Below, piece after piece: positions 19,472-61,274 of a DNA stretch of 64,000 bases (position 1 is its first letter; the number at the start of each line of letters is the position of its first letter). Source of the stretch: Kiritimatiellia bacterium (GTDB taxonomy: Bacteria; Verrucomicrobiota; Kiritimatiellia; JAAZAB01); assembly GCA_028715905.1 (NCBI GenBank), contig JAQUQV010000002.1:15979-79978 (forward strand). The letters are read 5' to 3'. The notes beneath the pieces were generated by a model that had not been told where the DNA came from, searched no databases, and was given only the letters and a program-made list of their open reading frames with translations. The translations under genes were made by a program, and so were the position numbers.

Positions 19472-19665
19472 TCTCTTATGCTGTCAAAAAATGCGTTTAA
19501 GACTGCAGCCGGCCGTTTGCGGCCGATTGCCGATTTCAGCCGGCGCTTGTCTTTCTCCGTTTTTCACCCGACCGCGCGCGATTTCATTTCTTTTATCACC
19601 TCAACGCGGTTTGACCAAGCATATTCTCCGATCTTCCGGCAAACCGGAGGCGCGGCGGAAGAGCA

Positions 19666-21258: not shown

Positions 21259-21352
21259 GAATCCCTGCCTTTCTGTTATAAGACCAGCGTTTAGCGGACA
21301 ACATGGCGCGCATGTAAAGACCATTGCGACCGCTCTCCGCTCTACGTTGCTG

Positions 21353-22546: not shown

Positions 22547-22608
22547 TGAAAATCCGGATAAAAAAATTCCGTTTCCGCGCTGGTTTCTGTTTTCAAATTT
22601 TGCGGCAT

Positions 22609-24441: not shown

Positions 24442-24940
24442 CCGAGGGGCAGACGCCGGTCATCAACTCCAGTTTCTTCAACAGGAAGTATATCGCCGGG
24501 AAAAAAAACGCGCCGTAAATCGTCGTGCCGATGAGTTTAAGAATAAACAGTCCGGGCTGAAAACAAAAAGGCGTGCGGCCGGAGAACAGGAGGAAGAAAA
24601 GGACAATTAACGGCACGCCGGCCCCGATCACGGCGCCCAGAAAAACATTTGTCATCGGCTTCCCGCTGAAAACGGCATGGCGATAATAATACAGAACGGT
24701 TCCGAACGCCGCAAACGCAAGCGTGCTCCCGCCCGGAGGCAAAGCGCCGATACTGTCGCTGATTATCCCCCCGAGCAACGCGGCCGAAAGCATCGCCGGC
24801 GCGGAATGGGTAAGGGCAAAATATGCCGCCACGCTCGCCAGAACCGGCGGCCGCGCAAATCCGATAAAAGCCGGCGCGGGGATGGTTTGCTCAATAACCA
24901 CGCCGAATCCTATCGCCATCATCATAATAACCGCGCTCAT
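24407..24940 (-). CDS. mreD: Rod shape-determining protein MreD
   Basis: A small polytopic membrane protein between mreC and mrdA in the conserved order. Confidence 0.7.
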   Translation of the reverse strand: MSAVIMMMAIGFGVVIEQTIPAPAFIGFARPPVLASVAAYFALTHSAPAMLSAALLGGIISDSIGALPPGGSTLAFAAFGTVLYYYRHAVFSGKPMTNVFLGAVIGAGVPLIVLFFLLFSGRTPFCFQPGLFILKLIGTTIYGAFFFPAIYFLLKKLELMTGVCPSDDISDDIHATN

Positions 24941-25779
24941 GGGGCTATTTGCTCCTGTTCCGTTTGTCCGGGCGCCGGCCCGTTCCTCTCAGGCAGAACG
25001 ATAAAAACCACGTCCAGCGATCTGAAGTCCGCCGCCGGCGTAACTTCGGCGTATTGAAAAAGGCCGGAAGCGTCAGCCTGCACGCTCTTGACATAGCCGA
25101 TAACCAGGCCCGCGGGATAAACCCCGCCCAGACCGGAAGATATCACTTCGTCCGCCGGATTGATCTCGGCATCCTTCGCGATATAATCCAAGCGGCAGAC
25201 GGCGGGGCCCTGCCACGACGCGCCCTGGCCGCGGACAATCCCGAAAACGTCCGAACGCGCAAGACGGGCGGCGATTCTTACCTTGGGACTGGTCAGGAAC
25301 AGCATGTCCGCCGTGGTGCGGGAAACGTCAACAATCTGACCCAACAGCCCATCCGGACCGATGACGGGAAGACCGGGCCGGATGCCGTCCTCCCCGCCCT
25401 TGTCAAGCCGGGCCGTCTGCCACCAGCCGTTGACGTCCCGCGCCAGCAGTTGGGAGGGCAGCAGGCGGTAGCCGGATGTTGATTTCAACTTAAGCAACGC
25501 GCGCAATTCCCGGTTTTCCCGCTCCAACGGCTCGCTTTGCCGGATTTTATCGCGCAAAGTTTCATTCTCCAGGCGCAACCGCCTGTTTTCATCCGCCAGT
25601 TCTCGCTTACTGCGGGTGAAATCACCTGCCCGGTCGCTTGCCCGCCGGAACCCCGCCTGCGGAACGGCGAAAATATCCCGGATAAATCCCGAGACGGCGT
25701 TCGTCTGTTCCGGCGGCAGACTGAACAAAACGCCCATCAGAATGAAAAAAAAGATAAAAATAAAAATATCGCGTTTCAT
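24937..25779 (-). CDS. mreC: Rod shape-determining protein MreC
   Basis: N-terminal TM helix, a coiled-coil (RRLRLENETLRDK) and a beta-rich C-terminal MreC domain. The start is placed at MKRDIFIF. Confidence 0.8.
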   Translation of the reverse strand: MKRDIFIFIFFFILMGVLFSLPPEQTNAVSGFIRDIFAVPQAGFRRASDRAGDFTRSKRELADENRRLRLENETLRDKIRQSEPLERENRELRALLKLKSTSGYRLLPSQLLARDVNGWWQTARLDKGGEDGIRPGLPVIGPDGLLGQIVDVSRTTADMLFLTSPKVRIAARLARSDVFGIVRGQGASWQGPAVCRLDYIAKDAEINPADEVISSGLGGVYPAGLVIGYVKSVQADASGLFQYAEVTPAADFRSLDVVFIVLPERNGPAPGQTEQEQIAP

Positions 25780-25950
25780 ATTGCGTGTCTTGCAAAGCGT
25801 ATCCGGCATTTCACGCGGCAAACGATGAAATACGCCTCACGGATTCAGACGGCGGAATAACGGCGGGAGAGACACCATTCCATGTGAGAGTGAAAACTTC
25901 CGGCGAGAAGAACGTTTGCGGGCGGGTTCAAACCGGACCGGCAGTCCTGG

Positions 25951-26979
25951 TCAAGCGCCGTAACTGGCCACTTTGCGCAAGAACTTGAGCTCGTGCAGAA
26001 CCATGCCCGTCCCTTCCGCCACGGCGCTGAGAGGGTCGTCAGCCATATGAACCGGCAACCCGGTTTGTTCGGCCACGAGTTTGTCTATGCCGTGCAGTAA
26101 AGCCCCCCCTCCGGCCATGACAATCCCCCGGTCAACCAGATCGGCCGAGAGTTCCGGCGGACAGCGCTCAAGCGTGAAACGCACCGCCTCCACGATGGCC
26201 ATGACCGGTTCGCGCAGCGCTTCCCGGACTTCTTCAGAAGTGAGGGTCAGCGTTTTCGGCAATCCCGCCACCAGGTCCCGGCCCTTGACCTCCATGCTGG
26301 TTTCCTCGGCCAGGGGATAGGCGGATCCGATGTTTATCTTGATCTGCTCGGCGCTGCGTTCGCCAATCATAAGGTTATACGCTCTCTTCATATACTGAAT
26401 AATGGCCTCATCCATTTCGTCGCCGCCCACGCGGACGCTGCGGCTGAACACAATGCCTGCCAATGAAATCAGGGCCACCTCGGTTGTCCCGCCGCCGATA
26501 TCAATAATCATATTGCCGGCCGGCTCCTGGACCGGAAGCCCCACGCCGATCGCCGCCGCCATGGGTTCTTCAATTAAATACACTTCTCGGGCGCCCGCGT
26601 GCGCAGCGGAGTCTTTTACCGCCCGTTTCTCCACCTCCGTTATTCCGCTGGGTACTGAAATAATGATTCTGGGGCGGACCATGATGCGGTTGCCCTGCAC
26701 CTTGCGGATAAAGTAGCGCAACATGGCCTCGGTAATTTCAAAGTCGGCAATAACGCCGTCCTTCATCGGCCTGATGGCCGTTATATTACCCGGCGTGCGG
26801 CCCAGCATCCGCTTGGCTTCCGCGCCGACCGCCAGAACGCGGTTGGTCCCGGTTTGAATGGCAACCACCGACGGTTCCCGCAGCACAATTCCCCGGTCTT
26901 TGACATAGACCAAGCTGTTCGCCGTGCCAAGGTCTATGCCAAGATCGTTTGAAAACAGATCAAAAATCCGCCCCAGCAT
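25951..26979 (-). CDS. mreB: Actin-like rod-shape protein MreB
   Basis: Full-length MreB with the phosphate-binding motifs DLGTANS and DIGGGTT. Confidence 0.95.
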
Positions 26980-27016
26980 ATTTCAGTCCTTTGAAAATTA
27001 TTACTGTTTGGAGTAA

Positions 27017-27044
27017 AAATTATGCAAAAACCAGTGATTGTCAA
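27017..27044 (-). promoter_or_regulatory. Sigma70-like promoter for mreB (TTGACA-N16-TAATTT, minus strand)
   Basis: An exact -35 hexamer lies about 60 nt upstream of the mreB ATG. Confidence 0.45.
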
Positions 27045-27074
27045 TAAATAAAATCAGAAAAAGCGGGCGCCCGC
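27045..27074 (-). terminator. Terminator-like GC hairpin (GCGGGCGCCCGC) followed by a T-run on the minus strand, just upstream of the mreB promoter
   Basis: A perfect 6-bp palindromic stem is followed on the minus strand by TTTTTCTGATTTTATTT. Confidence 0.35.
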
Positions 27075-27126
27075 ATAACGGGTGCAAACGGCGTGCAGCC
27101 GCGTTGCGGCCTACGTCGCTCACGTC

Positions 27127-27193
27127 TTTCGCTGGCGGGCAATGCCCGCCTGAGCGAAAGCGAATATTGCACGAAATTCGCGCAATATTCGGG
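27127..27193 (-). repeat. About 70-bp conserved intergenic element, copy A; inverted partner of 3193..3263
   Basis: Its reverse complement aligns with 3193..3263 at roughly 85 percent identity. It has a cgctttcgc...gcgaaag stem enclosing a ggcgggca/tgcccgcc hairpin. Confidence 0.55.
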
Positions 27194-27588
27194 TGATACA
27201 ACTTTGTGACAACAAGGAGGTTCATTATGCATTTCTTGAACGGCATACCGAGGACATTCTCGGCGCCTATTCGTGTTTTGACCGGATCATCATCCAAGGC
27301 GCCCTGCCCGACATTGCCCATGCGGACGCTATCACGCAGTGGTTCTTCTGGCATGATAAACTCACCCATCGCACCTTTTTCCGTTACGACACCGGCCGCT
27401 GTGTCCACTACTGTAACGGGCACAACTGGCTGGCCCGCCGTATGACCAGGGCCGGCATTTCCTTCACGCAAGTGAATTACTATGTTGAAGCAGATTTGCA
27501 ATATTATTCCGGGACATCTTGTGAACAAGCCAAGGCTGTGTTACCCCTGGGGGTAACACAGCCTTGGAACATTACCGAAAAAGAGTAA
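27193..27588 (+). CDS. Hypothetical small protein with a GTG start (low confidence)
   Basis: A 131-aa ORF of protein-like composition. However, an AAGGAGG RBS sits 6 nt upstream of an ATG (27228) in a different frame, encoding a 72-aa S/T/P-rich peptide. The coding status is unresolved. Confidence 0.25.
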   Translation: MIQLCDNKEVHYAFLERHTEDILGAYSCFDRIIIQGALPDIAHADAITQWFFWHDKLTHRTFFRYDTGRCVHYCNGHNWLARRMTRAGISFTQVNYYVEADLQYYSGTSCEQAKAVLPLGVTQPWNITEKE

Positions 27589-27665
27589 AAAAATCTTGCA
27601 ATTTATAAATTAAGTGATATTTTTAGTTTTAAAGAGCTATGGAGCACCATGGCGCATGAAATAAA

Positions 27666-28880
27666 ATGAATATACAAGAATCAATATTGGACGGTAATTC
27701 TAAAATTCCCAAGTATTTCCAATTAAAGAATATTTTATTGCAACAGATATTGGAAAAGAAAGCGGACGAAAGATTTTACTCGGAACGCGAGTTGGCAGCC
27801 TTATACAAGGTAAGCGTATTTACAGCGCGCCAGGCGCTGGCCGAACTGGTCAAGGGGGAAAAACTGGTCAGATTACATGGTAAAGGCACCTTTATTGCCA
27901 ATCATTCAAAAACAATAAAGCTGGAAGACGCCAGAATCGGCTTGGCATGGCAAGAGGACATAGAAGTGAATGGTGTTGTTTTTACATACGAGATATTGAA
28001 TCTAATGGCCGACTGCGACCGCCGGCATATACATTTGTCAACCTTTACCTATCCCAGGCAGGGATTGCGTAATTCTGCCTGCCTGTTGCGCAATATGTTG
28101 GATCAAAAGCGGTTGGATGCGCTGTTGATCTATTGTGTTCCCCTTGATATTGGCGATATAGCATGGCTTCAAGACAGACAGGTTCCGTTCATATTGGCAG
28201 GAACAGACCTTTTTGAGGACAATATATTTAGTGTCATGGGAGATGTTTTTGAGGGAATACGCATGGCAATGAATCATCTGGCCGAACTGAAACACACCCG
28301 GATTGGCCTAGTCAACACCGCGATGAATAATTATCTCAAGGCAACGGCCGTTTTGGGATATCGTTCGGCTCTGGACAAGCGTGATATTCCCTTTAAGCCG
28401 GAGTTGATTATAGATATGCCGTACGGCGAAGATATAGATCTTGGCCGATTTGACAAGTGGGTGGAGGCTGCGCGTCCGACCGGCATTCTAACGGTGGAAG
28501 AGGTAATGGCACTGGGAGTTATGAAAAGACTTTTGTGCACCGGTAAATCCGTGCCCGGAGATATCTCGGTGATCGGATACAGCGACCGGCTGCCTCCTTC
28601 GTGTTACCCGGTATCCCTGACCACGATAGACACCCGGATTCGCATTCAGAATCAAAAGACGCTGGATTTATTAAGCGATATGATCAGCGGCAAGCCTGTG
28701 CAACAACAGCATGTCAAGATTGCGCCGGAACTGGTTGTGCGCTCATCAACCGCCGTTTGTCCTTCCTTTTCATATGAACAACAAATTGATCATCCGGAAA
28801 AATATTCCGCAGCGGCCAAAGCCGTCACGGAACCAGGGTATAATCGGAGGCAAATATGCAAGACGCCGCAAGAATATTAA
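27666..28880 (+). CDS. Transcriptional regulator with a GntR-type HTH N-terminus and a LacI/periplasmic-binding-protein-like sugar-binding C-terminus (AraR-like architecture)
   Basis: GntR winged-helix signature ERELAALYKVSVFTARQALAELVKGEKLVRLHGKGTFIA, then a PBP-like domain of about 300 aa. Low-GC gene. Confidence 0.65.
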   Translation: MNIQESILDGNSKIPKYFQLKNILLQQILEKKADERFYSERELAALYKVSVFTARQALAELVKGEKLVRLHGKGTFIANHSKTIKLEDARIGLAWQEDIEVNGVVFTYEILNLMADCDRRHIHLSTFTYPRQGLRNSACLLRNMLDQKRLDALLIYCVPLDIGDIAWLQDRQVPFILAGTDLFEDNIFSVMGDVFEGIRMAMNHLAELKHTRIGLVNTAMNNYLKATAVLGYRSALDKRDIPFKPELIIDMPYGEDIDLGRFDKWVEAARPTGILTVEEVMALGVMKRLLCTGKSVPGDISVIGYSDRLPPSCYPVSLTTIDTRIRIQNQKTLDLLSDMISGKPVQQQHVKIAPELVVRSSTAVCPSFSYEQQIDHPEKYSAAAKAVTEPGYNRRQICKTPQEY

Positions 28881-29809
28881 AACGTCACCCGGCCAATCCG
28901 CTGCTGCATGTCAAGGATTATCCCGGAACAGCCCAGCTTTACAATCCCTCGCCGGTAATTTACAATGACGAAACCTTGCTGTTGGTTTCGGTGGTGGAAC
29001 ATGCGGCCAGACGCGGCTATGGCCGGGATGTTGGGCAGACAAGAATCGCTAGAAGCAGCGACGGTGTTCATTTCGCCCTTGGCATGGAAGACTTCATTGG
29101 CGTGCAGTCCGAAGAATTTCCCTGGTCCCTTTGTCATCATTTCATAGATAACCGCGTTACAAAAATAGACGATGTTTATTATATCGTGACGCCGGTTATG
29201 GTCCGTGATTTCGTCTCACCCGTGGGCATGCTTGGAAGGACCATGGATTTTATAACCTATGAACGCATGGGGATTATTACCCAGCCGCGCAACCGGGGAG
29301 CATCGCTTTTTCCGGAAAAAATCGGCGGAAAATACTGGAAGCTTGACCGGCCCGGCGGCGACACCCGCTGTAGCGGCGACCTCTGGATTTCATCGTCGCC
29401 CGATCTACTGCACTGGGGCGGATTTCGGCCGGTATTGGCGGCCAATTACCGGTTCTGGAACGAAAAAAAGATCGGGCCGACTCCGCCCATAAAAACGGAC
29501 AAAGGCTGGCTGGTGATAATTCACGGGGTTTCTGCTCCTGCCGGAGGAACCTATTATTACATTGGCGCCATGCTGCTGGATTTGAAAGAACCATGGAAAG
29601 TGATCGGGAAAACGAACAGTTATATTCTGGGGCCTGAAGAGGAATACGAGCGGCACGGCAACTGCGATAATACCGTTTTTCCATGCGGCGCCATAGCGGA
29701 TCAAGCCAAGGATGAACTGCGGCTCTATTACGGGGCTTGCGATCAATGTGTTTGCCTCGCCACCGGCAGCCTCAACAGCCTTATCCAAGCTTGCCTTGAT
29801 GAAATTTGA
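28856..29809 (+). CDS. Glycoside hydrolase family 130 (beta-mannoside phosphorylase/hydrolase, DUF377 fold)
   Basis: GH130-like blades (NPSPVIYNDETLLL..., GDTRCSGDLWISSSPDLLHWG, WLVIIHGV); 317 aa. A GGAGG RBS lies 6 nt upstream. Confidence 0.65.
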   Translation: MQDAARILKRHPANPLLHVKDYPGTAQLYNPSPVIYNDETLLLVSVVEHAARRGYGRDVGQTRIARSSDGVHFALGMEDFIGVQSEEFPWSLCHHFIDNRVTKIDDVYYIVTPVMVRDFVSPVGMLGRTMDFITYERMGIITQPRNRGASLFPEKIGGKYWKLDRPGGDTRCSGDLWISSSPDLLHWGGFRPVLAANYRFWNEKKIGPTPPIKTDKGWLVIIHGVSAPAGGTYYYIGAMLLDLKEPWKVIGKTNSYILGPEEEYERHGNCDNTVFPCGAIADQAKDELRLYYGACDQCVCLATGSLNSLIQACLDEI

Positions 29810-30016
29810 AATTGAGAAAAGAATGCCGGGGAAAGCCGGCAAAGAAACGTGCGTGATTGTGAACGCATAACGGCGGTGATTGCGGACGGTATTGCGGAAC
29901 AGGCTGAAAATCGCAAAAACAACCGGTTCGGCTTTCGCAAACTTTTGGGCGATGCCAACCCGTCATGCCATAGGCAGATATCCGCCTCTGGCGGAAAATT
30001 AATCATTCGGAAAAAC

Positions 30017-30046
30017 ATTCCTTGACGGCCAAAGCTGTCAAGGAAT
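30017..30046 (+). promoter_or_regulatory. Perfect 10-bp inverted repeat ATTCCTTGAC-N10-GTCAAGGAAT immediately upstream of the 30059 gene; candidate operator
   Basis: The palindrome ends 12 nt before the ATG and is followed by an AGGAG RBS. Confidence 0.4.
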
Positions 30047-30058
30047 CAGGAGCCTTGC

Positions 30059-33000
30059 ATGTCCACTCAATATAAAACACTCCTGTTGACATTTTTCGGG
30101 ATGTTAATGGTTGGCGCGAATACTTTTTGCGGCAATGTGAGGCAGCGCGTGTGGACAAAATATTTTCCCAATATCACTCCACATTATTCGGGATATGAGC
30201 CTGAATTCGAGGAGGTGTCTACGAATTACGTAACCCCACATACAGAATGGGCAAAACCTTGGAGTCTCGGACAGGTAAAAACATTGGCGCTTGCGCCGCG
30301 CGTGTGTCACCGCGATACCGTGGAATTGGCGCAATGTTTGGATATGGCCTTTGACACCTTCGGCTCTTTTGGACGCACTAGGCTCAGCGGAATAACCGGA
30401 CCAGAGTTCGACGGCACCCCGGTCTGCGCGTTTGCCGGTTTCAGCCAACAGGATCAGGTTCAACGCCTGAAGAATATTTTGACAAATAATTATGATGTTT
30501 TGATTATGGGGGGCATGTGCTGGGCGGCATTCCCCTCAGACATACAGGCAATCATTTTGGAGAAGGTTGAGAAAGGAACTGGATTAGTCATCGGTTTCAC
30601 CGGTTCCGGCATGAAAAACTATGTGCCTGGCGTCATTCAATCCGCGCCGACCGTTGGACAAACCGATTCATCGTGGGTTTGCTCGGGAATTCCTTTCACC
30701 GCCTTATATGGAAGCGAGGGATATAAATCCGACAGAGAAGCCGCCATGGCAATCGTGAGCCTTAAACAATTCGGCAAGGGGCGCGTGGCAATATTGTCCT
30801 TGGGTGGAAATTCTGAAAACACCTATTTTGTTCCGCCATTGCCGGCGCAACCTGCATGGAGAATATGGCAGGTGGATTATTATTTTTCACTTGCGGCAAA
30901 AGCAGTGCTCTGGGCATCCGGCAAAAATCCGGCAAAGAGCGTCGTATGGACCGTCAAGAATCAACGAATAGTGGTTGATGGCGATTACAACGCCAAAAGT
31001 GCCGTTCAATGCGTGAAAATACGCAACGATCTCGGGGAAATCGCGTGGGAAAAAGATATTTGGGAAAACGAGATCGCCCTTCCAAGCCTGGCGCCCGGCA
31101 AATACCTTGCCGATATCGTTTTAAAAAAGGAAGGCAAAAACCTCGATTGGGGAACTTGTGTTTTTGAAATAAAAGGAGACGCGCAAATAAGTTCGGTTGC
31201 CGTCACCCCGGCTATTGTGGAATCCGGCTCCAGTATGTCCCTCTCTACAATGTTAGAGGGAAATACCAGGAAGGAATTGTATTTAAATGTCCGATTATGG
31301 GACATGTATGAAAGACTTCTCGGCGAGATAACTCAGAAAGCTCCGCCGGGACAAAAGTTGATCCAAACGAAAATTGACGCGAGAAGCCCTTTGACTTGTT
31401 TGATGAAGGGACGCCTGGTTCTTAATGACGCTGCCGGCCACGAAGTAAGTCATAAGGAAATTTTCATTCCCGTGAAAATTCCATATATCGCGGATGATTT
31501 CGGGTTTCTAACGATGGAGGATGGATTCAATGAATACCCTTGGTATTATGCCCGCAAGGAAATGCGCGCGCTTGGCATGAATCTGGCGTACACAAAAGTA
31601 TTCGCGGATACTCATGCTTCCCTGAACAATCCGTGGATGTTGTGCTGGGTCAATGCTTTGGCGGGCATCCAGCCGGTGCCTTGGATCACGTCATATCGCG
31701 GGGATATGTACAGGGAGAATGCTGCGGACAAAACTCATTACGAACGGACGCCGTGTCTGAGCGATCCGGAATACATCACCATGGAAAAGGAAAGAATTCA
31801 TCGGCTTGTACGCGAGGCAGTCGTTTTTGGGCCGCCGGCTTATTGTCTGGGTGACGAAAATTTTTTATCGTTGAATGACGTGGAGATGTGTTTTTCCAAG
31901 CATTGCATGGAAGGATTCAGGAAATATCTTAAGGCGCTGTATCTTCGGCTTGAGGCTCTAAACTCCGAGTGGGGAAGCAGATATAAAACGTGGAATGAAA
32001 TAACGCCGCTTACGCTGGCGGAAGCACGCGCGCTCGATCAACCGGCACGGTGGGTTGATTTCAGACTCTTTATGGAGCGCGTATTTCTCGGCATTCATCA
32101 GGCTGGCGCCGCTGCGGCGAGAGAATATGCCCCTGATGCGCGGGTGGGTTTTGACGGGCTTTTTAACACAACCAGTTTTACCGGTTATGATTGGTGGCAA
32201 TTGTCGCAAAATTTAGATTTTCTGGGCGTCTATCCCGATCACCTTCAGACCGAAATATTAAGATCTTTCCATAAAAACAAATCCATTACCGGACGTTGGT
32301 GCGGCGGGTACCGGAATTTGACAAGCTTTAAAGAATACGGCCATTGGGAGCCGTGGCATACATTGTTTCACGAGATGAACACAGTATGGTGGTATAATAT
32401 GATTGAACGCGCCGCCAACGGTATTTTCTGCTCGGATACGATGAACCCGACTTCATTTCAGCCTTTCCCGGTCCTTCAGGCAACGTCCACGGAGGTTCTG
32501 GAGATCAAAGGCGGGATCGGGAAACTGCTCTTGAATGCCAAACGCGATACGGGCGGTATTGCGATCCTGTATTCCCAATCCAGTCTGCACGCGGCGACGT
32601 ATTATGCAAAGCATGGAAATTCCAATGACAGCGCGCTTGATTTCATCAGAATTCTGGAGGATCTCTGTCATCAATATCGGTTTATCTCCTATGAGCAACT
32701 GGCGCAAGGAATATTGACGCGAGAAAAATATAAACTGATAATTCTTCCGAGTTCAATAGCGTTGTCGGAAGCGGAACGAGACGCTCTTATGGCCTTTTCA
32801 AAATCTGGCGGCCATGTCGTTGCGGACACAATCCCCGGAATTTATGACGAACATGGGAAACCCCTGGTTCCTGATATGCAGTGGGCGGAATGGCAAAAGA
32901 ACAGCGTAGAAATAGTCGGAGATAAAGTCAGGGGCTATAAGAGGGGGAAATCCGGAGATATTGAACAGCGGCATCGGTTTTCAGGCAAACTGAGCGAAAA

Positions 33001-33598
33001 AGGCATTTCGCCGGAATTTTCTGTCAAAACCGACAAGGGCGATTTGTATGAGGGGGAACTGGTTGTATTTAGCGATCATGACACCCGGTATGTTGGGATG
33101 TTGAGAAGTCATTCGCCTGCGGTTAAGAATCAGGGCTTGGTGATAATCCTGCCCGAGAAAAGACATGTTTACAATGTCCGCGCAGGCCGCTATCTCGGAT
33201 ATCAGGACAGAATCAGCGATGAATTGAAACCCGGCATGGCCGGATTATGGGCATTGTTTCCCTCAGAACAGCCGAAAGATTTAATAATGTTGAATGTACA
33301 ACAGGAAGCCGACATTGGCGGAAATATTGAATATAGCGTCAGGTTAAAAACCGAATCACCCGGATGTCACGTGGTTCGGATAACGGTGAAAAATCCCGAC
33401 GGTATCGCGCAAAAACATTATAGCCGAAACCTGATTGTAAGGAACGGCGCCGCAACGGATATTGTGCCGCTGGCGTTGAGTGACAAGGCCGGCAGCTGGA
33501 GAATCCACGCAATGGATGTTGCCACCGGCTCTTCAATAAATAAACGATCTGCCGTCAAACGAAGGGGGAACATTGGATCAATAGATGAAAGGAAATGA
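30059..33598 (+). CDS. Large secreted protein (1179 aa), putative glycoside hydrolase with a GH42-like fold, including a domain-M/class-I-glutamine-amidotransferase-like module
   Basis: Signal peptide. An internal segment GIAILYSQ...YKLIILPSSIALSEAERDALMAFSKSGGHVVA resembles the GH42 trimerisation domain. Low GC. Confidence 0.45.
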   Translation: MSTQYKTLLLTFFGMLMVGANTFCGNVRQRVWTKYFPNITPHYSGYEPEFEEVSTNYVTPHTEWAKPWSLGQVKTLALAPRVCHRDTVELAQCLDMAFDTFGSFGRTRLSGITGPEFDGTPVCAFAGFSQQDQVQRLKNILTNNYDVLIMGGMCWAAFPSDIQAIILEKVEKGTGLVIGFTGSGMKNYVPGVIQSAPTVGQTDSSWVCSGIPFTALYGSEGYKSDREAAMAIVSLKQFGKGRVAILSLGGNSENTYFVPPLPAQPAWRIWQVDYYFSLAAKAVLWASGKNPAKSVVWTVKNQRIVVDGDYNAKSAVQCVKIRNDLGEIAWEKDIWENEIALPSLAPGKYLADIVLKKEGKNLDWGTCVFEIKGDAQISSVAVTPAIVESGSSMSLSTMLEGNTRKELYLNVRLWDMYERLLGEITQKAPPGQKLIQTKIDARSPLTCLMKGRLVLNDAAGHEVSHKEIFIPVKIPYIADDFGFLTMEDGFNEYPWYYARKEMRALGMNLAYTKVFADTHASLNNPWMLCWVNALAGIQPVPWITSYRGDMYRENAADKTHYERTPCLSDPEYITMEKERIHRLVREAVVFGPPAYCLGDENFLSLNDVEMCFSKHCMEGFRKYLKALYLRLEALNSEWGSRYKTWNEITPLTLAEARALDQPARWVDFRLFMERVFLGIHQAGAAAAREYAPDARVGFDGLFNTTSFTGYDWWQLSQNLDFLGVYPDHLQTEILRSFHKNKSITGRWCGGYRNLTSFKEYGHWEPWHTLFHEMNTVWWYNMIERAANGIFCSDTMNPTSFQPFPVLQATSTEVLEIKGGIGKLLLNAKRDTGGIAILYSQSSLHAATYYAKHGNSNDSALDFIRILEDLCHQYRFISYEQLAQGILTREKYKLIILPSSIALSEAERDALMAFSKSGGHVVADTIPGIYDEHGKPLVPDMQWAEWQKNSVEIVGDKVRGYKRGKSGDIEQRHRFSGKLSEKGISPEFSVKTDKGDLYEGELVVFSDHDTRYVGMLRSHSPAVKNQGLVIILPEKRHVYNVRAGRYLGYQDRISDELKPGMAGLWALFPSEQPKDLIMLNVQQEADIGGNIEYSVRLKTESPGCHVVRITVKNPDGIAQKHYSRNLIVRNGAATDIVPLALSDKAGSWRIHAMDVATGSSINKRSAVKRRGNIGSIDERK

Positions 33599-36500
33599 GG
33601 ATGAAAGTTATGAGCAAATCGTTTTTGGTGGCTTTATTTTTACCGCTTACGGTTATAACCGGTTTGACGAACGTAGAGACACTGATTGTGCCCAGAGCGA
33701 CAGCGCCTGAAATTGACGGGCAAATCAAAGGTGAAGAATGGCGCGGCAGCGCAAAGGCGGGCCTGTTTGTGCATTTAGGAGGTTCCAGTAATGCCGCGTC
33801 CGACCAGACGGAAGCATTCATTATGCGTGATTGCGAGAATATTTACGTTGCGTTACTCTGCCATGGTTACAATCCAACGCAGGATCCGGCCGACGATGAA
33901 ACGGAATTCCATTTTAACGAGAACATGGAGCTCCAATCTACCACACGCCAGTTTATTATGAACTCGCGAGGCGTCCGCGCCGCCAAGAAAGCAGCATCCG
34001 CAATCGGAAGTAATAACACATGGGCCGTGGAAATGGCCATTCCGCTTGCCGATTTGAAAATTAAGCCGGATGAGGGAACGATGTTTCGCGGGCATTTTTG
34101 CAGAAAAGTGTCGTCTAAGAAAGAATACAGCTCTTGGCCGCCGATCTTGTCCGACAGTTTTCACGATTTGTACAATTCGGCCCGTTTTATTTTCGGCTCA
34201 TATCAGGCAGTAATCCTGCAAAAGTTGGGAATATTAATCAGAGAAACCGAAAAGATATATGTCGCGGATGCCATGAATGCCGACAGGGACGCCATTTTGA
34301 ATGAGGCGCGCAGATTGGAGTCAAAATTCAAGGCAAAGGCTGATTTATCCCCGGAAGAATTTCATGAGGCAATAGATGAAGTGATTAAAGTTGAGGATCA
34401 AAAGGCGGCGATGGATCGTCGGATTTTCAGGGAACTCTCCTTGCGTCACCTGGAGAGTTTGATTGAAAGCACGGGCAATTTGTCGGCATCCGATGAAATA
34501 GCAAAAGAAAAATCCGGGCTTTTGGATGATATGCAAAAACTGGCGGCGGCGGTTAAAATAAAGGGAGGCCTGTCAATAAGTGAATTTTACGCGACAAACA
34601 CAAAGGTATCGGAATTGGAAGATCGCAAAGCGGCCTTAGATGTTAAACTCGTACGCCGGAGTTTTGGCCCCATGGCGGCTGCGCCCGGGGCGAAACAGCC
34701 TGATGGAAATATCTTTTTGACGTCTGACGCGGCGCGGGGCGGCTATGACTTGCCTGAAGTCTGGACAAATCGTCAGATTCTGGGAAAGGATTTCTGGTTT
34801 GACATATGTTATTATCCGTCATTTTGGCAGAAGGTCGGCTTGGAAGATGAGCCCTTTATAAAGGATTCGTTGATGCGGATCGGGAGCTCTCCGATCATCA
34901 GAGAATATCCTTATAAGATTACTAATTTTGAATACGATTTTTTTGACCCACAGTCCGTGATATATCGTGCCCTGCATGAAACAGACAGGCCGTTCGCCGT
35001 GTACGGAGAGATTGGGCCTCTGGATATCGCTCCGTCGGTTTGCCGTCGTTTTTTAAAGGAGTACGGCGACAGGTTTGCCGGTTTCATGGCCGATGAATGT
35101 TTCGGCAACAAAGCTCGCGAAAGATGCTGGATGGCAATGGGGTTGCCATATCCGCGCACCCGGCAGGAAGCATTTTTGGGATTTACGGCCGCCTATTTCA
35201 ATTCAACCATTAATACCAATATTAATATGTTTTATTTCAGGAGTTGGGCGCTTACCCATCTGGTATTCCGCCCCTGGACATCCTGCGGGACGGCAACCTA
35301 TCTGGATCACTGGATATTGGAGCTTGGGGCCCCGTACAGCGGCGAGGAACTCGGCGCTTCAGGAATTGTATGCACGCCCATGCAGCTCGCGTTCTCGCGC
35401 GGGGCGGCGCGGCAATACAGAAAGCCGTGGCGGACATATCTGGCGCTATATGCCGCCGGAGTCGCGGGCGATTCGGCAATGAGCTATTCGGGGTGCCTTT
35501 CTCCGGAATGCCGGAGGGGAACAAAATTCGGGCCATACAGCGGAACATCTCTCTCGCTGCAACGGCGGCAATTGTTCGCCGCGTACATGTCGGGCGTCAA
35601 TATGATCAGAGATGAACACGATCTCGAACCATATCCTGGTAAAAACGAACGTCTCTCAACTTATGTGGCGCTTTATGATTGGCGCCATATCGATAAAACC
35701 GATCCATTGGTGAAAGTTATGAGAGATAAACACTATTATCTGTCGCCGGCCGGCGAAATCCGTAAAGAATTATATGATAATATTGTCAAAAAACATGACC
35801 GCGGCATGGCTTATACGCCTGTGGGTTTGATCTTTGATCGATATCATGGATTCATACTGAATTACGCAAGGAATAGAATCTTGGGGATTTTGCCCTACAC
35901 GGAAGGCGATTATATGATGCGAGCCGTTAATAACTCCTTGTTTCCCTGGGAGGACAATGTCAGAAGTGAAGGACATACGATGGTGACTTCTCCTTATGGC
36001 GATATGTTTGATGTGCTTACGAACAATGCCAGACTGGAGACTTTGAAGACGTATAGAACTCTGTTATTGGTAGGTAATGTTGATTTGGACAAATTGTTTG
36101 CGCAGCGCCTGCTGGACTACGTCAGCGAGGGCGGCACATTGTTGATAAATGCCGCACAGATCAGCGACGGAACATTGCCCGAGGCATTTCTTGGATGCAA
36201 AATATTGAACGAGCGCGGCGAAGGTCGAATATGGTACAGCCTGTTGGATGGAGAGGCGGCAGCCGAGCGGAAATCGTTCGGATATCGGCGACTGAAACCG
36301 ATAAGCGCAACCCCTTTGATCATTCGCGCGGACGGCGATAACAAAAAAGACGCGTTGGCGACTATGAACGAATACGGCAAGGGCCGCGTGATCCTGACCG
36401 CGCCTGATTACTTGTATGAAGTTGGAAGTCGCAATCGGATGTTGAATATGTTCGGCTACCTGATGGGACATCTGCGGGATGAATTGTTGCCGGTCCGGTG

Positions 36501-36792
36501 GGAAGGAAATGTGGAAGTTTTGGTGAACAGGAGCAGCAGGGGTTGGGTGGTAACGCTGATCAACAATGAGGGGGTGCTCAAAAAGGGTGGACAAAAGGAA
36601 ATGATTGATGATACAAAAAAGGCCGATGTGCGGGTAACATTGAACAAGGCGGCCGGCGGCCCGGAGGTGAAGAAAATCGCGGAATGGGTCAAGGGAGAAA
36701 AGCTGGAGATGCGGAAAACGGGTAATGAGGCCGAGGTCAAAATAACGGTTCCGCCGGGCGATGTTCGTATCCTGGAGTTCCGGATGAATTGA
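33595..36792 (+). CDS. Large secreted protein (1065 aa) with an N-terminal CBM9/DOMON-like carbohydrate-binding module and a GH42-domain-M-like segment
   Basis: Signal peptide. ATAPEIDGQIKGEEWRGS matches the CBM9-like motif. LLLVGNVDLDKLFAQRLLDYVSEGGTLLINA is amidotransferase-like. 4-nt overlap with the upstream gene. Confidence 0.45.
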   Translation: MRMKVMSKSFLVALFLPLTVITGLTNVETLIVPRATAPEIDGQIKGEEWRGSAKAGLFVHLGGSSNAASDQTEAFIMRDCENIYVALLCHGYNPTQDPADDETEFHFNENMELQSTTRQFIMNSRGVRAAKKAASAIGSNNTWAVEMAIPLADLKIKPDEGTMFRGHFCRKVSSKKEYSSWPPILSDSFHDLYNSARFIFGSYQAVILQKLGILIRETEKIYVADAMNADRDAILNEARRLESKFKAKADLSPEEFHEAIDEVIKVEDQKAAMDRRIFRELSLRHLESLIESTGNLSASDEIAKEKSGLLDDMQKLAAAVKIKGGLSISEFYATNTKVSELEDRKAALDVKLVRRSFGPMAAAPGAKQPDGNIFLTSDAARGGYDLPEVWTNRQILGKDFWFDICYYPSFWQKVGLEDEPFIKDSLMRIGSSPIIREYPYKITNFEYDFFDPQSVIYRALHETDRPFAVYGEIGPLDIAPSVCRRFLKEYGDRFAGFMADECFGNKARERCWMAMGLPYPRTRQEAFLGFTAAYFNSTINTNINMFYFRSWALTHLVFRPWTSCGTATYLDHWILELGAPYSGEELGASGIVCTPMQLAFSRGAARQYRKPWRTYLALYAAGVAGDSAMSYSGCLSPECRRGTKFGPYSGTSLSLQRRQLFAAYMSGVNMIRDEHDLEPYPGKNERLSTYVALYDWRHIDKTDPLVKVMRDKHYYLSPAGEIRKELYDNIVKKHDRGMAYTPVGLIFDRYHGFILNYARNRILGILPYTEGDYMMRAVNNSLFPWEDNVRSEGHTMVTSPYGDMFDVLTNNARLETLKTYRTLLLVGNVDLDKLFAQRLLDYVSEGGTLLINAAQISDGTLPEAFLGCKILNERGEGRIWYSLLDGEAAAERKSFGYRRLKPISATPLIIRADGDNKKDALATMNEYGKGRVILTAPDYLYEVGSRNRMLNMFGYLMGHLRDELLPVRWEGNVEVLVNRSSRGWVVTLINNEGVLKKGGQKEMIDDTKKADVRVTLNKAAGGPEVKKIAEWVKGEKLEMRKTGNEAEVKITVPPGDVRILEFRMN

Positions 36793-36806
36793 CATAAAGA
36801 TGGAGG

Positions 36807-38111
36807 TTGACGATGAAAAGATTATTACTGGTTGCGATGGGACTTTTGGTTGCGGCGGCCTGTCCGGGGGCCATGCATTACGTGGTGACGAACGGGACGC
36901 CGGGATGGACCGGCGCTGTTGATCCCTACACCAACTGGGCCACGGCCGGAACAAATATTATTGACGTGGTCAATGCCGCCATGACCAACGACGAACCAAG
37001 ACTGGTGCTAGTCTCCAACGGCACGTATTATCTGACCAACCAGGTGCTGATAACCAACGCCCTGACAATCCGCGGGGTCAAAGGCCGGGAGGCAACGATT
37101 GTGGATGGAGGATACGGGATGCCGACGAACACCTATGGGGGATGTTTTTATCTCTTATCGGGTGGCGGTGCGAAGACGTTGGATGGGTTTACGATTACTA
37201 ACGGATGTGCAACTTCAGGCGGTGGTGTTTATATGGCCAACGATGTCAGTAATACTGTTAAAAATTGTCGGATAACAGGGTGCGTGGCTACCAATACGTT
37301 TGGCAGTCTGGCCAGCGGGGGTGGGGCTTATGTCTGGCGTGGAGTTATGACCAATTGTGAAGTTATTGGGAACATTAACTATAACTGCTATGGCGGAGGA
37401 ATTCTTCTGCGACGCGGTATAGTTGCGAGCTGTGTCGTTGCTCAAAACACGGTATACCAGGGAAAAACAGGGAATGAAGTTACGGGCGGCGGAATACATA
37501 CTTTTGAATCTACTAGTTCCATTAATAATTGTGAAATTTATAGTAATGAAGTTGTCGGCACCTATCTAATAGGCAGCGGCGTGGCCTTGAAGGACAATGC
37601 GGTTTTGCGTAATTCGCTAATCTATGGCAACATGGGCCAGCATGCAGTGTCTATCTATAATACAGGGGGAAAAGTTCAGAATTGCACAATAGTAGGTAAT
37701 AAGGCTGGAGGAATTTATCTTTATGCTGCTTCTACATATACCGGTTGTATTGAAAATGTCGTCAGTTATTTCAATGTGGGATCGTCTGATAGTAATGTTT
37801 ATTTTAATTCCAACGGCAAAGGTTCTTACCAAATAATCAACAGCTGCATTGCGCCCACTAACACCTTTCCGACCAGTGGAATCGAGGGATATTATTACGC
37901 CGGTAATATTGAGTCCGATCCACAGCTCGCGGATAAGGACAATAATAATTTTCGACTGGCGCAGGATTCTCCCTGCGTCAATGCCGGCACGAACCAGGAA
38001 TGGATGACGAACGCGGTTGATCTGGACGGCGCCGCGCGCATCCGCTACGGCCGGGTGGACATGGGCGCCTATGAACGCATCTATCACGGCGTCGTCTACG
38101 GCGTGCGATAA
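36807..38111 (+). CDS. Secreted right-handed parallel beta-helix repeat protein with a choice-of-anchor-Q-type C-terminus
   Basis: Signal peptide. G/N/T-rich beta-helix rungs (NCxIxGN repeats). C-terminal DLDGAARIRYGRVDMGAYE motif. Confidence 0.6.
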   Translation: MTMKRLLLVAMGLLVAAACPGAMHYVVTNGTPGWTGAVDPYTNWATAGTNIIDVVNAAMTNDEPRLVLVSNGTYYLTNQVLITNALTIRGVKGREATIVDGGYGMPTNTYGGCFYLLSGGGAKTLDGFTITNGCATSGGGVYMANDVSNTVKNCRITGCVATNTFGSLASGGGAYVWRGVMTNCEVIGNINYNCYGGGILLRRGIVASCVVAQNTVYQGKTGNEVTGGGIHTFESTSSINNCEIYSNEVVGTYLIGSGVALKDNAVLRNSLIYGNMGQHAVSIYNTGGKVQNCTIVGNKAGGIYLYAASTYTGCIENVVSYFNVGSSDSNVYFNSNGKGSYQIINSCIAPTNTFPTSGIEGYYYAGNIESDPQLADKDNNNFRLAQDSPCVNAGTNQEWMTNAVDLDGAARIRYGRVDMGAYERIYHGVVYGVR

Positions 38112-38194
38112 AACCTGATGGCAAGCCTAAAGGGCGTGTTGCCCAAACGATGAAAAAGAGAATAACGCCGGCGAACGGGACGCGGGGAATATTT

Positions 38195-38228
38195 GCCGGG
38201 AAATTTTCGGATGGCGGCCTGCCGCCTT
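38195..38228 (+). repeat. 36-bp conserved motif copy 3
   Basis: gccgggaaattttcggatggcggcctgccgccttgg; compare 9411..9446. Confidence 0.5.
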
Positions 38229-38319
38229 GGATCATTCCGTTTAAAACCTGGCCACGCACAGCGCGTGGTTGGCCTGCAGCTGGGCAGGCATATGACAGTT
38301 TTGCGAAGATGATGAACCT

Positions 38320-38367
38320 GTAGGGGCGCCACCCCGCTGGCGCGATAATTCGCCTCAGCGGGGCTCC
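38320..38367 (+). repeat. REP-like GC-rich hairpin element beginning GTAGGGGCG
   Basis: GTAGG head plus a ccccgctg...cagcgggg stem; similar heads at 47101 and 47255. Confidence 0.3.
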
Positions 38368-38407
38368 TCCAGCGGTCTAATAAAGCGCGAAGCGCGGGGG
38401 ATTTGTG

Positions 38408-39505
38408 ATGAACACGCCGTATTATCTGATAGACGAAAGCAAACTGCTCGGGAATCTTAAAATCATCCGGCGGGTGCGCGCCTATTCGGGCGCAAAGTCC
38501 GTGCTGGCGCTTAAATGTTTTTCAACCTGGAGCGTGTTTCCCCTGATGCGCAGATACATGGACGGCACCACGAGCAGTTCGCTCTTTGAGGCCCGCCTGG
38601 GGTATGAAAAATTCGGGGGGGAAACGCACGCCTACAGCGTCGGGTTTTCCAGGGAGGACGTCAAGGCCGCCGCTGAATTCGCCGATAAAATCATCTTTAA
38701 TTCGGTTTCCCAGCTTGAAGCCCATGGAGCCGAAGCGCGCGGTCCGCAGATCGGTCTGAGGATCAATCCGGGAATCAGTTATTCGCATTACGATCTGGCC
38801 GACCCGGCCCGTAAATATTCGCGTTTGGGCGTCAGGGACCGGCGCGAATTGATGCGGGTATCCCGCCTTGTCAGCGGCGCGATGTTTCATTTTAACTGCG
38901 AGAACGGCGACTTTAAAAATTTTGCGGCGGCCCTGGATTTCATCGGGCGCAATTATGCCGGTTTCCTTGAGAAACTGGAATGGGTCAGCCTGGGCGGCGG
39001 GGTAACCTTTACCGGACGGAAATACCCGCTTGAAAAATTCTGCCGCCTGTTGAAAAAATTCAGCGAGCGGTTCGGCGTGCAGGTTTATCTGGAGCCGGGC
39101 GAGGCGGTTATTGCCGGCTGCGCCGAGCTGGTAACGACGGTGCTGGATGTTGTGCGCAATAAAATTGACATCGCCGTCGTGGATGCTTCCACCGAGGCGC
39201 ACATGCTGGACCACCTGGTTTATCGGACCAGCGCGCGGATTGCCGCCCCGGGGCGGGGACGCTTCCAGTGCATGATTGCCGGCCGTTCCTGCCTGGCGGG
39301 AGACGTGTTCGGCCAATACCGCCTTGCGAGAAGGCTGAAGTCCGGCGATATTGTCCGCATCGCGGACGCGGCCGGATACACAATGGTCAAAAAGAACTGG
39401 TTCAACGGCCTGCCCATGCCGGCCATTTGCGTGAGAAGGCTGGATGGAACATTTACTACGGTCAGAAGTTTTGGATACAAGGATTATGTTGCCAGTCTGT
39501 CATAA
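38408..39505 (+). CDS. nspC: Carboxynorspermidine/carboxyspermidine decarboxylase (PLP, fold III)
   Basis: The N-terminal TPYYLIDE and the overall NspC homology; 365 aa. Confidence 0.8.
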   Translation: MNTPYYLIDESKLLGNLKIIRRVRAYSGAKSVLALKCFSTWSVFPLMRRYMDGTTSSSLFEARLGYEKFGGETHAYSVGFSREDVKAAAEFADKIIFNSVSQLEAHGAEARGPQIGLRINPGISYSHYDLADPARKYSRLGVRDRRELMRVSRLVSGAMFHFNCENGDFKNFAAALDFIGRNYAGFLEKLEWVSLGGGVTFTGRKYPLEKFCRLLKKFSERFGVQVYLEPGEAVIAGCAELVTTVLDVVRNKIDIAVVDASTEAHMLDHLVYRTSARIAAPGRGRFQCMIAGRSCLAGDVFGQYRLARRLKSGDIVRIADAAGYTMVKKNWFNGLPMPAICVRRLDGTFTTVRSFGYKDYVASLS

Positions 39506-39694
39506 AAAGGAATTTGAAATTTCTCTCGGCTTCGGTACGCAGGAGGAAATCAACGAATCAATTCAGTTAATCGAGAAGCACTTCTGAGTTTCGGCATAAA
39601 GAAACACACAAAACAGATGTTTTGCCAGACTGTCTCCAGCGCGCTGGGCGCGCTTCCAGTAGTGGGTGATCTTTAACGTTTGGAGAAGGAAATA

Positions 39695-40699
39695 ATGCAG
39701 ACGAACATGCAGAATGGGGAGACGAGAGGAGAAATCGTTATTTACCGGGCGAAGGATGGGCGGACCAGCCTGGAAGTCAACCTGCATCAAGAGACCGTCT
39801 GGCTGACACAGTCCCAAATGATTGATCTGTTCCAGAGGGATCAATCGGTCATTTCGCGTCATATTCATAACGTGTTCAAAGGAGGAGAGTTGCATCCGCA
39901 AAGCAATATGCAAAAAATGCATATTGCCGGGTCAGATAAACCCGTGGTGATGTACAGTTTGGACATGATCATCTCAGTCGGTTACCGGGTTAACTCCCGG
40001 CGTGGCACGGAGTTCCGCATATGGGCAACGCAAGTCCTCAAAGACCATATTCTTAAAGGATATACGGTCAACGAAAAGAGACTGCGTGAACAGGCAACGC
40101 GATTCAAAGAACTACAAGAAGCCGTTGACCTGATGGGCCGGATCATGCAAGACCGGCAATTGGCAGGTAACGAAGCAGAAGGTCTGCTCAAGATCATTGC
40201 CAACTACTCGTTGGCTCTGTCGCTTCTTGATCAGTATGACCATCGGCAATTGGCGTTTCGTGACACCACCTTGACAACGTCTTTTGTTATGACATACGAG
40301 TTGGCCAAGAAAGCCATTGCAAAGTTGGCGGAACAGTCGCCGTTTGGTGGCGGGCTTTTCGGTCAGGAGAAAGACGCGTCCTTTAAAGGTTCGCTTGGCG
40401 CCATTTATCAAACTTTCGGCGGGCACGAGCTTTACCCAAGTATTGAGGAAAAAGCGGCTCATCTTTTATATTTCGTGATCAAGAACCATTCTTTTGCCGA
40501 CGGCAATAAACGGATTGCCGCCTTCTTGTTCGTCTGGTTCATGGACGCTAACCGGATTCTGTACCGGAAAGACGGGACCAAACGCATCGCAGATAATGCG
40601 CTCGTCGCGCTTACACTCCTGATCGCGGAAAGCAAGCCGAAGGACAAGGATATCATCGTCAAAGTGTTGGTGAATCTGATTAATAGAGGAAATGTTTGA
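39695..40699 (+). CDS. RhuM-family protein with a C-terminal Fic/Doc domain (Doc-type HxFxDGNKR motif)
   Basis: RhuM-like N-terminus (GEIVIYRAKDGRTSLEVNLHQETVWLTQSQMIDLFQRDQSVISRHIHNVFKGGEL). The Fic/Doc active-site motif HSFADGNKRIAA. A GGAG RBS lies before the ATG at 39695. Confidence 0.7.
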   Translation: MQTNMQNGETRGEIVIYRAKDGRTSLEVNLHQETVWLTQSQMIDLFQRDQSVISRHIHNVFKGGELHPQSNMQKMHIAGSDKPVVMYSLDMIISVGYRVNSRRGTEFRIWATQVLKDHILKGYTVNEKRLREQATRFKELQEAVDLMGRIMQDRQLAGNEAEGLLKIIANYSLALSLLDQYDHRQLAFRDTTLTTSFVMTYELAKKAIAKLAEQSPFGGGLFGQEKDASFKGSLGAIYQTFGGHELYPSIEEKAAHLLYFVIKNHSFADGNKRIAAFLFVWFMDANRILYRKDGTKRIADNALVALTLLIAESKPKDKDIIVKVLVNLINRGNV

Positions 40700-49589: not shown

Positions 49590-49731
49590 CCGTATTTACC
49601 TGTTTTTTAAACGCATTGCCATTTATGCAAAGATATATTATAAAAGATTACGATACAACATTATTGTGCGCAACATCCCTGCAAGATGCCCCGGAATGAG
49701 GTATGTTGTGCATTCGTGCCTTGGGGTGGCA

Positions 49732-60460: not shown

Positions 60461-60467
60461 CCATTGC

Positions 60468-60545
60468 TTAACAGAATCTTTTGATCTGACAATTTGCGAT
60501 TGAGCCTTTGATCGGTCAAATTGACCGATGTCATTATCAAATTAT
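60468..60545 (+). repeat. 78-bp direct repeat R1; partner R2 at 61275..61352
   Basis: Identical 19-bp and 23-bp ends (ttaacagaatcttttgatc ... attgaccgatgtcattatcaaat) with a divergent palindromic centre. Confidence 0.55.
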
Positions 60546-61221: not shown

Positions 61222-61274
61222 TGCCTATCTTTTGTCAATATCATTGTTTATCTGGTCTGGTCCGCACAGATTGA

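Follow-up and report, generated by a model that had tools for sequence, protein, structure and literature searches.

A five-gene carbohydrate-active cluster of foreign composition, probably acquired by horizontal transfer, between mreB and nspC of a Kiritimatiellia bacterium

Lateral acquisition of carbohydrate-active enzyme (CAZyme) gene clusters is a well-known route to a wider glycan diet, and as a genomic feature such an island is routine. Clusters of this kind, including the polysaccharide-utilization loci (PULs) of Bacteroidota, combine a regulator, secreted carbohydrate-active proteins and a cytoplasmic finishing enzyme in DNA of atypical composition. Here we describe a cluster of the same general make-up in a Kiritimatiellia bacterium, within a 64,000-nt stretch of contig JAQUQV010000002.1 (the window hereafter). 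Five genes, all on the + strand, lie between mreB and nspC. We favor, with a probability of roughly 0.6, the reading that this is a carbohydrate-active cluster of foreign composition that was acquired by horizontal transfer and that operates as proposed below. The genes are as follows:

27666-28880, + strand: AraR-type regulator, with a GntR-family winged helix-turn-helix (residues ~10-80) and a LacI/PurR-type sugar-binding domain (~140-365).
28856-29809, + strand: glycoside hydrolase family 130 (GH130) protein, predicted phosphorylase type (PF04041, 1.8e-45).
30059-33598, + strand: prot3, 1179 aa, predicted to be secreted, GH42-like.
33595-36792, + strand: prot4, 1065 aa, predicted to be secreted; signal peptide, degenerate domain resembling carbohydrate-binding module family 9 (CBM9), coiled coil, and a ~680-aa core ending in a module like GH42M or the second domain of GlmA and in a β-sandwich.
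36807-38111, + strand: β-helix protein, right-handed β-helix with a C-terminal choice-of-anchor Q domain (Pfam PF13229, NCBIfam NF041518).

The last three genes are close-packed, with a 4-nt overlap followed by a 14-nt gap. Unlike the PULs of Bacteroidota, the island lacks integrative-element genes and resides in a host of the PVC (Planctomycetes-Verrucomicrobia-Chlamydiae) group; moreover, Pfam and NCBIfam searches found neither a SusC/SusD pair nor a transporter among the five genes. A preliminary description of this DNA had termed the locus PUL-like, which is apt only if the term is used loosely for any CAZyme gene cluster, here one of GH130, GH42-like, CBM9-linked and β-helix genes with a regulator on the + strand.

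The five genes lie in a compositional island. GC content is 0.488 in 27600-38111, compared to 0.574 in 17000-26999 and 0.567 in 38112-39505, and every 10.5-kb window outside the island has a GC content of at least 0.527. Profiles at 1 kb and 300 nt show a sustained trough at ~27-38 kb, and a two-change-point maximum-likelihood fit delimits the tract:

26941-37960, no strand: low-GC tract, GC ~0.49 versus 0.57 in the flanks.

The preliminary description had placed this drop correctly but put the flanks at ~62%; they measure 0.57, making the true step ~8.5 points. Of the two sharp, AT-rich borders it described, the left one is present (GC 0.37 at 27550-27849), whereas the right transition falls inside the last ~150-200 nt of the β-helix gene, not at its stop codon; GC content is 0.475 in the first 1110 nt of this gene and 0.59 in the last 195 nt.

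Coding signatures show the same anomaly. GC content at third codon positions (GC3) is 0.50-0.57 (0.53) in the five island genes versus 0.677 +/- 0.036 in the backbone (n=37; Mann-Whitney p=2.4e-6), a shift of ~4 standard deviations. Leave-one-out codon log-likelihoods are shifted in all five genes, clearly negative, in favor of the island model, in four (GH130, 0.000), and separate the five from every backbone gene except a partial open reading frame (ORF) at 109-630. The regulator gene, whose product is cytoplasmic, is the most deviant of the five. For dinucleotides, delta* is 92.6 for the island, compared to 17-36 in backbone windows of equal size, or ~3x beyond any of them. Neither GC content nor codon signature is uniform, and the anomaly proposed from the earlier reading of the sequence is real.

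The three secreted families recur together. Genes for prot3, prot4 and the β-helix protein have homologs that adjoin, in varying order, in at least five independent contigs. Prot3 homologs lie beside CBM9 proteins in two loci (L001, L002), with a β-helix homolog (36% identity) following in L002, and prot4 homologs are followed by β-helix homologs in L084 and L085 (60% and 47%). In L103, the closest prot3 homolog (47%) has a prot4-family gene upstream of it, and in L105 homologs of prot4 (58%) and prot3 (41%) flank a canonical GH42 gene, a 360-aa ORF without an assigned family and a CBM9 gene. Mobile elements are found next to two of these cassettes: rve-type transposase genes come after a prot4 homolog, a GH42 gene and a β-helix homolog in L104, and a fragment of an ISAzo13-type transposase directly adjoins the prot4 homolog of L106. 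Other neighbors in related loci are GH106, GH123_N/GHL6, F5/8C, CBM4_9, CBM32-like, URO-D-like and GFO/IDH genes. The related contigs have GC contents of 0.37-0.52 (0.42-0.52 in the eight just named, which hold the closest homologs), and those with the closest prot4 homologs (0.49-0.52) match the island in composition. The nearest homologs of the island proteins are 42-60% identical, the nearest named one being from Victivallaceae (42%). The regulator and GH130 are not part of the related clusters, which makes the island look like a mosaic of a regulator/phosphorylase pair and a three-gene secreted module.

Annotation of the second gene as GH130 in the preliminary description was correct (Pfam PF04041). 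Its nearest solved relatives are TM1225 (1vkd), RaMP2 (5ayd) and UhgbMP (4udg), which align over the full length with E values of 1e-55 to 2e-39. Published residue rules distinguish phosphorylases from hydrolases in this family (PMC4599007, PMC7660257): a phosphorylase has the proton donor D104, the phosphate-binding residues R168 and H231, no signal peptide and no catalytic-base Glu. In alignments with UhgbMP, and with TM1225 and RaMP2 as well, D104, R150, R168, H231 and D304 of UhgbMP correspond to D98, R147, R165, H223 and D296 of the island protein, whose N-terminus (MQDAARILKRH) has no hydrophobic leader and no signal peptide. Because it conforms to these rules, we predict that the protein is of the phosphorylase type rather than a hydrolase, as are the former GH130_2 mannoside phosphorylases, with which it shares the absence of a signal peptide, the proton-donor Asp and the phosphate-binding Arg and His.

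The +1 subsite differs from that of the former GH130_2 enzymes. A Y/R pair is present in all characterized β-1,4 GH130 enzymes (PMC7660257). Of the β-1,4-mannoside signature (the Y103/R150 pair plus R59), only the R150 equivalent is found in the island protein: Y103 is replaced by I97 and R59 by S45 (V in an alternative alignment). The same I/R pair is found in meta-node UC6, a set of 11 metagenomic sequences whose representative was insoluble and whose linkage specificity was, according to the authors, not predictable, possibly β-1,6 (Li et al. 2020, PMC7660257). The island protein thus resembles the sole group of predicted phosphorylases whose specificity could be neither predicted nor assayed. 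It scores below every NCBIfam equivalog cut-off (201 versus 550 bits), and, in further contrast to the former GH130_2 phosphorylases, its partners in the cluster are not mannanases or N-glycan enzymes.

Prot3 (the 30059-33598 product) has a GH42-like fold with unusual catalytic motifs. Pfam PF02449 matches at 43.6 bits (cut-off 21) over just 120 of 376 profile positions, with a sub-threshold GH42M match, and a profile of the family (11 sequences) matches GH42 at 5e-16 and GH164 Bs164 at 5e-10, as well as 6ptm and a GH167 entry. An AlphaFold2 model (predicted local distance difference test, pLDDT, 80.9; predicted template-modeling score, pTM, 0.84) contains a signal peptide, an α/β domain (~60-290), two immunoglobulin-like domains (296-475), an eight-stranded triose-phosphate isomerase (TIM) barrel (482-830), a GH42-domain-B-like module (834-960) and two β-sandwiches. 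Its best Foldseek matches in the PDB are the Bacteroides ovatus GH42-like exo-carrageenase 6ptm and an Ignavibacterium β-1,2-glucosyltransferase, followed by a GH42 arabinopyranosidase, a galactosidase and GlmA (E 3e-20 to 4e-15). With GH42 and GH42-like enzymes (GH164 Bs164 6t5o, 6ptm, GH35 GlmA 5gsm, IaSGT 7vkw) prot3 shares the arrangement of barrel, glutamine-amidotransferase-like domain and β-sandwich, at a TM-score on target of ~0.6, and the helical segment that bears the Cys motif in GH42 is retained behind strand 4. It differs from them in ~480 extra N-terminal residues and a second C-terminal β-sandwich, and its identity to the solved structures is just 10-14%.

The active-site region sets prot3 further apart. 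In place of the GH42 acid/base motif DNE, strand 4 is followed by a conserved GDEN, in which D599 is invariant and E600 is present in 10 of 11 sequences; in an alignment with 1kwg, the GH42 acid/base E141 falls opposite F602. No strand-7 nucleophile Glu was found: strand 7 (743-748, ITGRWC) continues into GGY with no acidic residue, as judged from the model and alignments rather than from superposition. Homologs have GRWYGGY at this position (GRW[C/Y]GGY overall), and the LLME motif of GH42 aligns to GRWY. D711 is a further invariant acid of the family. Judging from model and alignments, the catalytic machinery of prot3 is not canonical for GH42, which makes the public name 'beta-galactosidase' unsafe.

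Prot4 (the 33595-36792 product) on its own matches nothing in Pfam or the PDB; its relatives are more informative. Homologs with 56-60% identity carry CBM9_1 (PF06452), and prot4 shares this N-terminal domain, in a copy with two internal deletions, followed by an inserted coiled-coil segment of ~75 aa. A 27-sequence family profile matches CBM9-2 of Thermotoga maritima xylanase 10A (1i82) at E 3e-9; prot4 itself, with its deletions, falls under every Pfam threshold. An exhaustive search of public data for prot4, counting cluster representatives at 50% identity, returned 1,172 representatives at E<=1e-3 and 152 at <=1e-30, mainly matching the C-terminal part (~380-1065). This core family has no Pfam model, and elsewhere it is fused to CBM9, CBM4_9, Laminin_G_3, F5/8 type C, PA14, FG-GAP propellers or a Por secretion tail. 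Weak matches to GLMA_2nd (16 of 27 members) and Glyco_hydro_42M (11 of 27) identify residues ~810-950 as a GH42-domain-B-like module. The ~430 residues preceding it match no domain and, if GH42 and GlmA are a guide, may form a divergent catalytic barrel.

The preliminary description gave the two large proteins GH42-domain-M-like and CBM9-like modules and regarded them as paralogs. A GH42-domain-B-like module is indeed present in both; the CBM9 assignment holds for prot4 only, at the level of its family. Paralogy was rejected, as it is not demonstrable: BLASTP gives scattered, short and non-colinear matches (best E 7e-4 in a single comparison), and profile-profile alignment gives one match of 33-42 columns in the domain-B-like module at 3-8% probability. 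By sequence, the two appear to share a module type (GH42-domain-B-like, i.e. glutamine-amidotransferase-like) and not a demonstrable common descent over their full lengths.

The 1179-aa and 1065-aa proteins match, with 100% identity, NCBI entries that come from a single contig of a metagenome-assembled genome (MAG) labeled 'Kiritimatiellae bacterium' (locus tag PHP98_00920 for prot4); exact-sequence look-ups of prot3 and its NCBI form returned no recorded contig. The deposited models begin downstream. The NCBI prot3 model (1104 aa) starts 75 codons inside the ORF, leaving out 30059-30283, and that of prot4 (839 aa) starts 226 codons inside, leaving out 33595-34272 and with it the signal peptide and CBM9-like domain. 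Alignments of homologs conserve the N-terminal regions and back the longer forms with signal peptides.

The fifth gene product is, as had been proposed, a β-helix choice-of-anchor-Q protein, predicted to be secreted. NF041518 matches residues 372-423 of 434 at 35.8 bits (cut-off 25), and the N-terminus is a hydrophobic leader. The protein ends 11 residues beyond choice-of-anchor Q, with no sorting signal in between, and no sequence relatives were found in the PDB.

The closest described counterpart of the regulator is AraR of Bacillus subtilis, in which a GntR-type DNA-binding domain is likewise fused to a LacI/GalR-type effector domain. The GntR/LacI hybrid architecture reported for the island protein is borne out by Pfam (PF00392, 33.7 bits; PF13377, Peripla_BP_3, 81.2 bits) and by PDB matches to DasR/YvoA for the N-terminus and to PurR, LacI, CcpA and AraR 3tb6 (E 2e-8) for the C-terminus. 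Its gene, like that of AraR, heads a glycan-catabolic cluster. It is nonetheless not an ortholog, as PurR and LacI outscore AraR, and it has a C-terminal tail of ~40 aa that overlaps one copy of a 55-nt repeat:

28783-28837, + strand: 55-nt repeat/hairpin, copy 1, in the 3' tail of the regulator ORF, ending 19 nt before the GH130 ATG.
29996-30050, + strand: 55-nt repeat/hairpin, copy 2, ending 9 nt before the prot3 ATG.

The copies are 82% identical, with 0 such matches expected by chance, and no further copies were found elsewhere in the window or in 102 fetched loci. Both fold alike, as UUCC(G/U)..(G/A)CGGC-CAAA-GC(C/U)GU..(C/A)GGAA, and a compensatory double change (G-C to U-A) along with two wobble changes preserves the pairing (folding z = -1.8 and -2.5). 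A classical terminator was ruled out, since neither copy is followed by a U-tract. The element may be a hairpin for stability or processing, in a 5' leader or between cistrons, or else a palindromic operator; with just two copies the choice among these is not possible.

How might the cluster work? We propose that the AraR-type regulator keeps the cluster repressed as long as no sugar effector is bound, and that the hairpin upstream of the GH130 and prot3 genes probably sets the relative mRNA levels or regulation of two transcription segments. Prot3, prot4 and the β-helix protein would be exported by the Sec pathway and act together outside the cytoplasm on one complex heteroglycan. A β-mannoside-containing fragment would then be imported by a transporter encoded elsewhere, as the cluster, having none of its own, depends on genes at other sites, and GH130 would cleave this fragment in the cytoplasm with phosphate to yield mannose-1-phosphate. 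The donor of the island would most likely have been a glycan-degrading bacterium of lower GC content (~40-50%).

Composition, together with the GC content of the homolog contigs, the transposases beside two of their cassettes, the low identity to known proteins and the accessory nature of the other low-GC patches in the window, makes horizontal transfer of the island likely. Lateral acquisition, put forward in the preliminary description, stands as the best reading, albeit without the classical hallmarks of an island. The five genes have no integrase, transposase or mobility domain (Pfam, NCBIfam); neither tRNA nor tmRNA genes were found across the 64 kb, the window has no Rfam family, and no direct repeat spans both borders. 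No empty site was seen among 80 nspC loci, none of which shares the mreB-nspC adjacency, the best NspC relative (75%) included, and a metagenome scan with MreC returned relatives just 28% identical. Together with five other points, these results weigh against transfer and the working proposed above: the source is a MAG; the cluster has no transporter; the codon usage of GH130 is intermediate, and the cluster may itself be mosaic; prot3 may not be a hydrolase, given its missing canonical nucleophile; and the AlphaFold2 model of prot4 (7-sequence alignment) is unusable, with a pLDDT of 42. The same absence of mobility genes, tRNA, direct repeats and an empty site favors a native, vertically inherited cluster, whose low GC would stem from low expression, from relaxed selection on codons or from the amino-acid composition of large secreted proteins; so do the membership of the contig in a Kiritimatiellae MAG and the common occurrence of such CAZyme families in PVC bacteria. 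We consider this unlikely in view of the size of the GC3 shift and of the dinucleotide signature, which is less dependent on expression. The strongest deviation is seen for a cytoplasmic protein, the regulator, which means that the make-up of secreted proteins does not explain the pattern. In addition, other low-GC patches in the window include toxin-antitoxin and Fic modules, and the contigs with the nearest homolog cassettes have ~50% GC, with transposases beside the cassettes. That foreign sequence was joined into the contig during assembly or binning, as the abrupt composition step and the MAG source might suggest, is very improbable: host-like sequence lies on both sides on one contig, the junctions are in or near intergenic DNA with the flanking genes intact, and the other small low-GC accessory insertions, one placed cleanly between nspC and its partner, fit a genuinely mosaic genome.

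As substrate, the preliminary description suggested β-mannan or N-glycans; GH130 would then act on Man-β-1,4-Man, Man-β-1,4-Glc or Man-β-1,4-GlcNAc. This proposal draws solely on GH130, whose nearest solved relatives include RaMP2, a β-1,4-mannooligosaccharide phosphorylase, along with TM1225 and UhgbMP, and in which the catalytic Asp is kept, as are the Arg and His that bind phosphate. We regard it as doubtful, as the positions of Y103 and R59 are taken by I97 and S45, leaving an I/R pair as in UC6 where the Y/R pair would be expected. Furthermore, Pfam finds no GH26, GH5 or GH113 mannanase, GH2 mannosidase, GH18 or GH85 enzyme or endo-N-acetylglucosaminidase in the five genes, and the partner loci hold GH42, GH106, GH123-like and F5/8C genes. 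By analogy with those partner genes, a galactose-, rhamnose- or mannose-containing heteropolysaccharide is a better candidate than plain β-mannan. A more far-reaching possibility, which we rate as less likely than not, is that the secreted trio is a recurrent mobile module for a heteroglycan, with prot3 and prot4 representing two new GH-like families on a GH42/GH35 scaffold and GH130 an I/R-type phosphorylase of undescribed linkage or acceptor specificity. Prot3 would then work without a strand-7 nucleophile, for example by a substrate-assisted or inverting mechanism via D599-E600 and D711. The island points to three linked, uncharacterized secreted families, including a prot4 core with ~1,170 representatives, and characterization of the trio and GH130 could lead to additional CAZy families or to a phosphorylase reaction not seen before. 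The analysis also corrects the public 'beta-galactosidase' label and the deposited models of both large proteins, which lack their signal peptides and N-terminal domains.

Domain annotation of the flanking genes supports the site given in the preliminary description, between the mre operon and nspC:

25951-26979, - strand: mreB, at the head of the mreBCD-PBP2-rodA-RNase G operon; backbone to the left of the island, GC3 0.70.
38405-39505, + strand: nspC, for carboxynorspermidine decarboxylase; backbone to the right of the island, GC3 0.68.

On the left, the - strand carries mreB, mreC, a 177-aa ORF, genes for a penicillin-binding protein 2 (PBP2)-type transpeptidase and rodA, and an RNase E/G gene; the 177-aa ORF occupies the mreD position and has no Pfam match. 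On the right, NspC and carboxynorspermidine synthase are 75-84% identical to Kiritimatiellota relatives, versus 42-60% for the island proteins. The two genes occur in this order in 80 of 80 nspC loci, which span many phyla, directly adjacent in 79, and none of the 80 has secreted-protein genes upstream. One locus (L063, 8027-8935, in the Acidimicrobiales MAG contig CAVZAF010000005.1) has an unrelated GH130 gene (35% identity) directly upstream of nspC, probably a coincidence. In four others from Omnitrophota and unclassified MAGs (L050, L051, L054, L062), a rodA-PBP2-mreB block is found ~4-9 kb away from the nspC/synthase pair, on the other strand; the mre/polyamine neighborhood therefore recurs in distant lineages, although the closest Kiritimatiellota relatives lack it.

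The spacer between mreB and the regulator contains several small features:

26980-27665, no strand: spacer, 686 nt, GC 0.47.
27068-27090, - strand: terminator-like hairpin.
27193-27588, + strand: ORF of 131 codons with protein-like sequence.
27530-27567: perfect 18-nt inverted repeat/hairpin near the 3' end of this ORF.

The ORF has no Pfam or NCBIfam match. The idea that it is a transposase remnant was dropped; it has one weak plasmid match (an 'ArsR family' protein), and its PDB matches are only designed repeats. A good Shine-Dalgarno site with an ATG at 27228 lies in a different frame, which suggests that the ORF is a frameshifted gene remnant. A scan for consensus promoters and terminators showed no enrichment relative to shuffled sequences and was set aside.

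Every remaining low-GC patch of the window is accessory:

39680-40699, + strand: RhuM/Fic gene, GC 0.487, GC3 0.59, between nspC and the carboxynorspermidine synthase gene.
42624-44074, + strand: AbiEi-like antitoxin and AbiEii nucleotidyltransferase toxin (type IV toxin-antitoxin/abortive infection), GC3 0.57-0.59.
49366-53281, one gene on each strand: low-GC3 pair, for a 587-aa B12-binding radical S-adenosylmethionine (radical-SAM) protein and a membrane protein of 729 aa that weakly matches PMT_2 (glycosyltransferase 39-like).
60110-62000: lowest-GC patch of the window (0.44).
60662-60937, - strand: weak CopG-antitoxin-like ORF.
61363-61680, - strand: MazF/PemK-type toxin.

The RhuM/Fic gene is a clean single-gene insertion in a conserved pair, its 3' end overlapping the synthase start by 8 nt. 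A 95-aa ORF with no assigned family overlaps the CopG-like ORF by 4 nt. The radical-SAM/PMT_2-like pair may be another accessory insertion.

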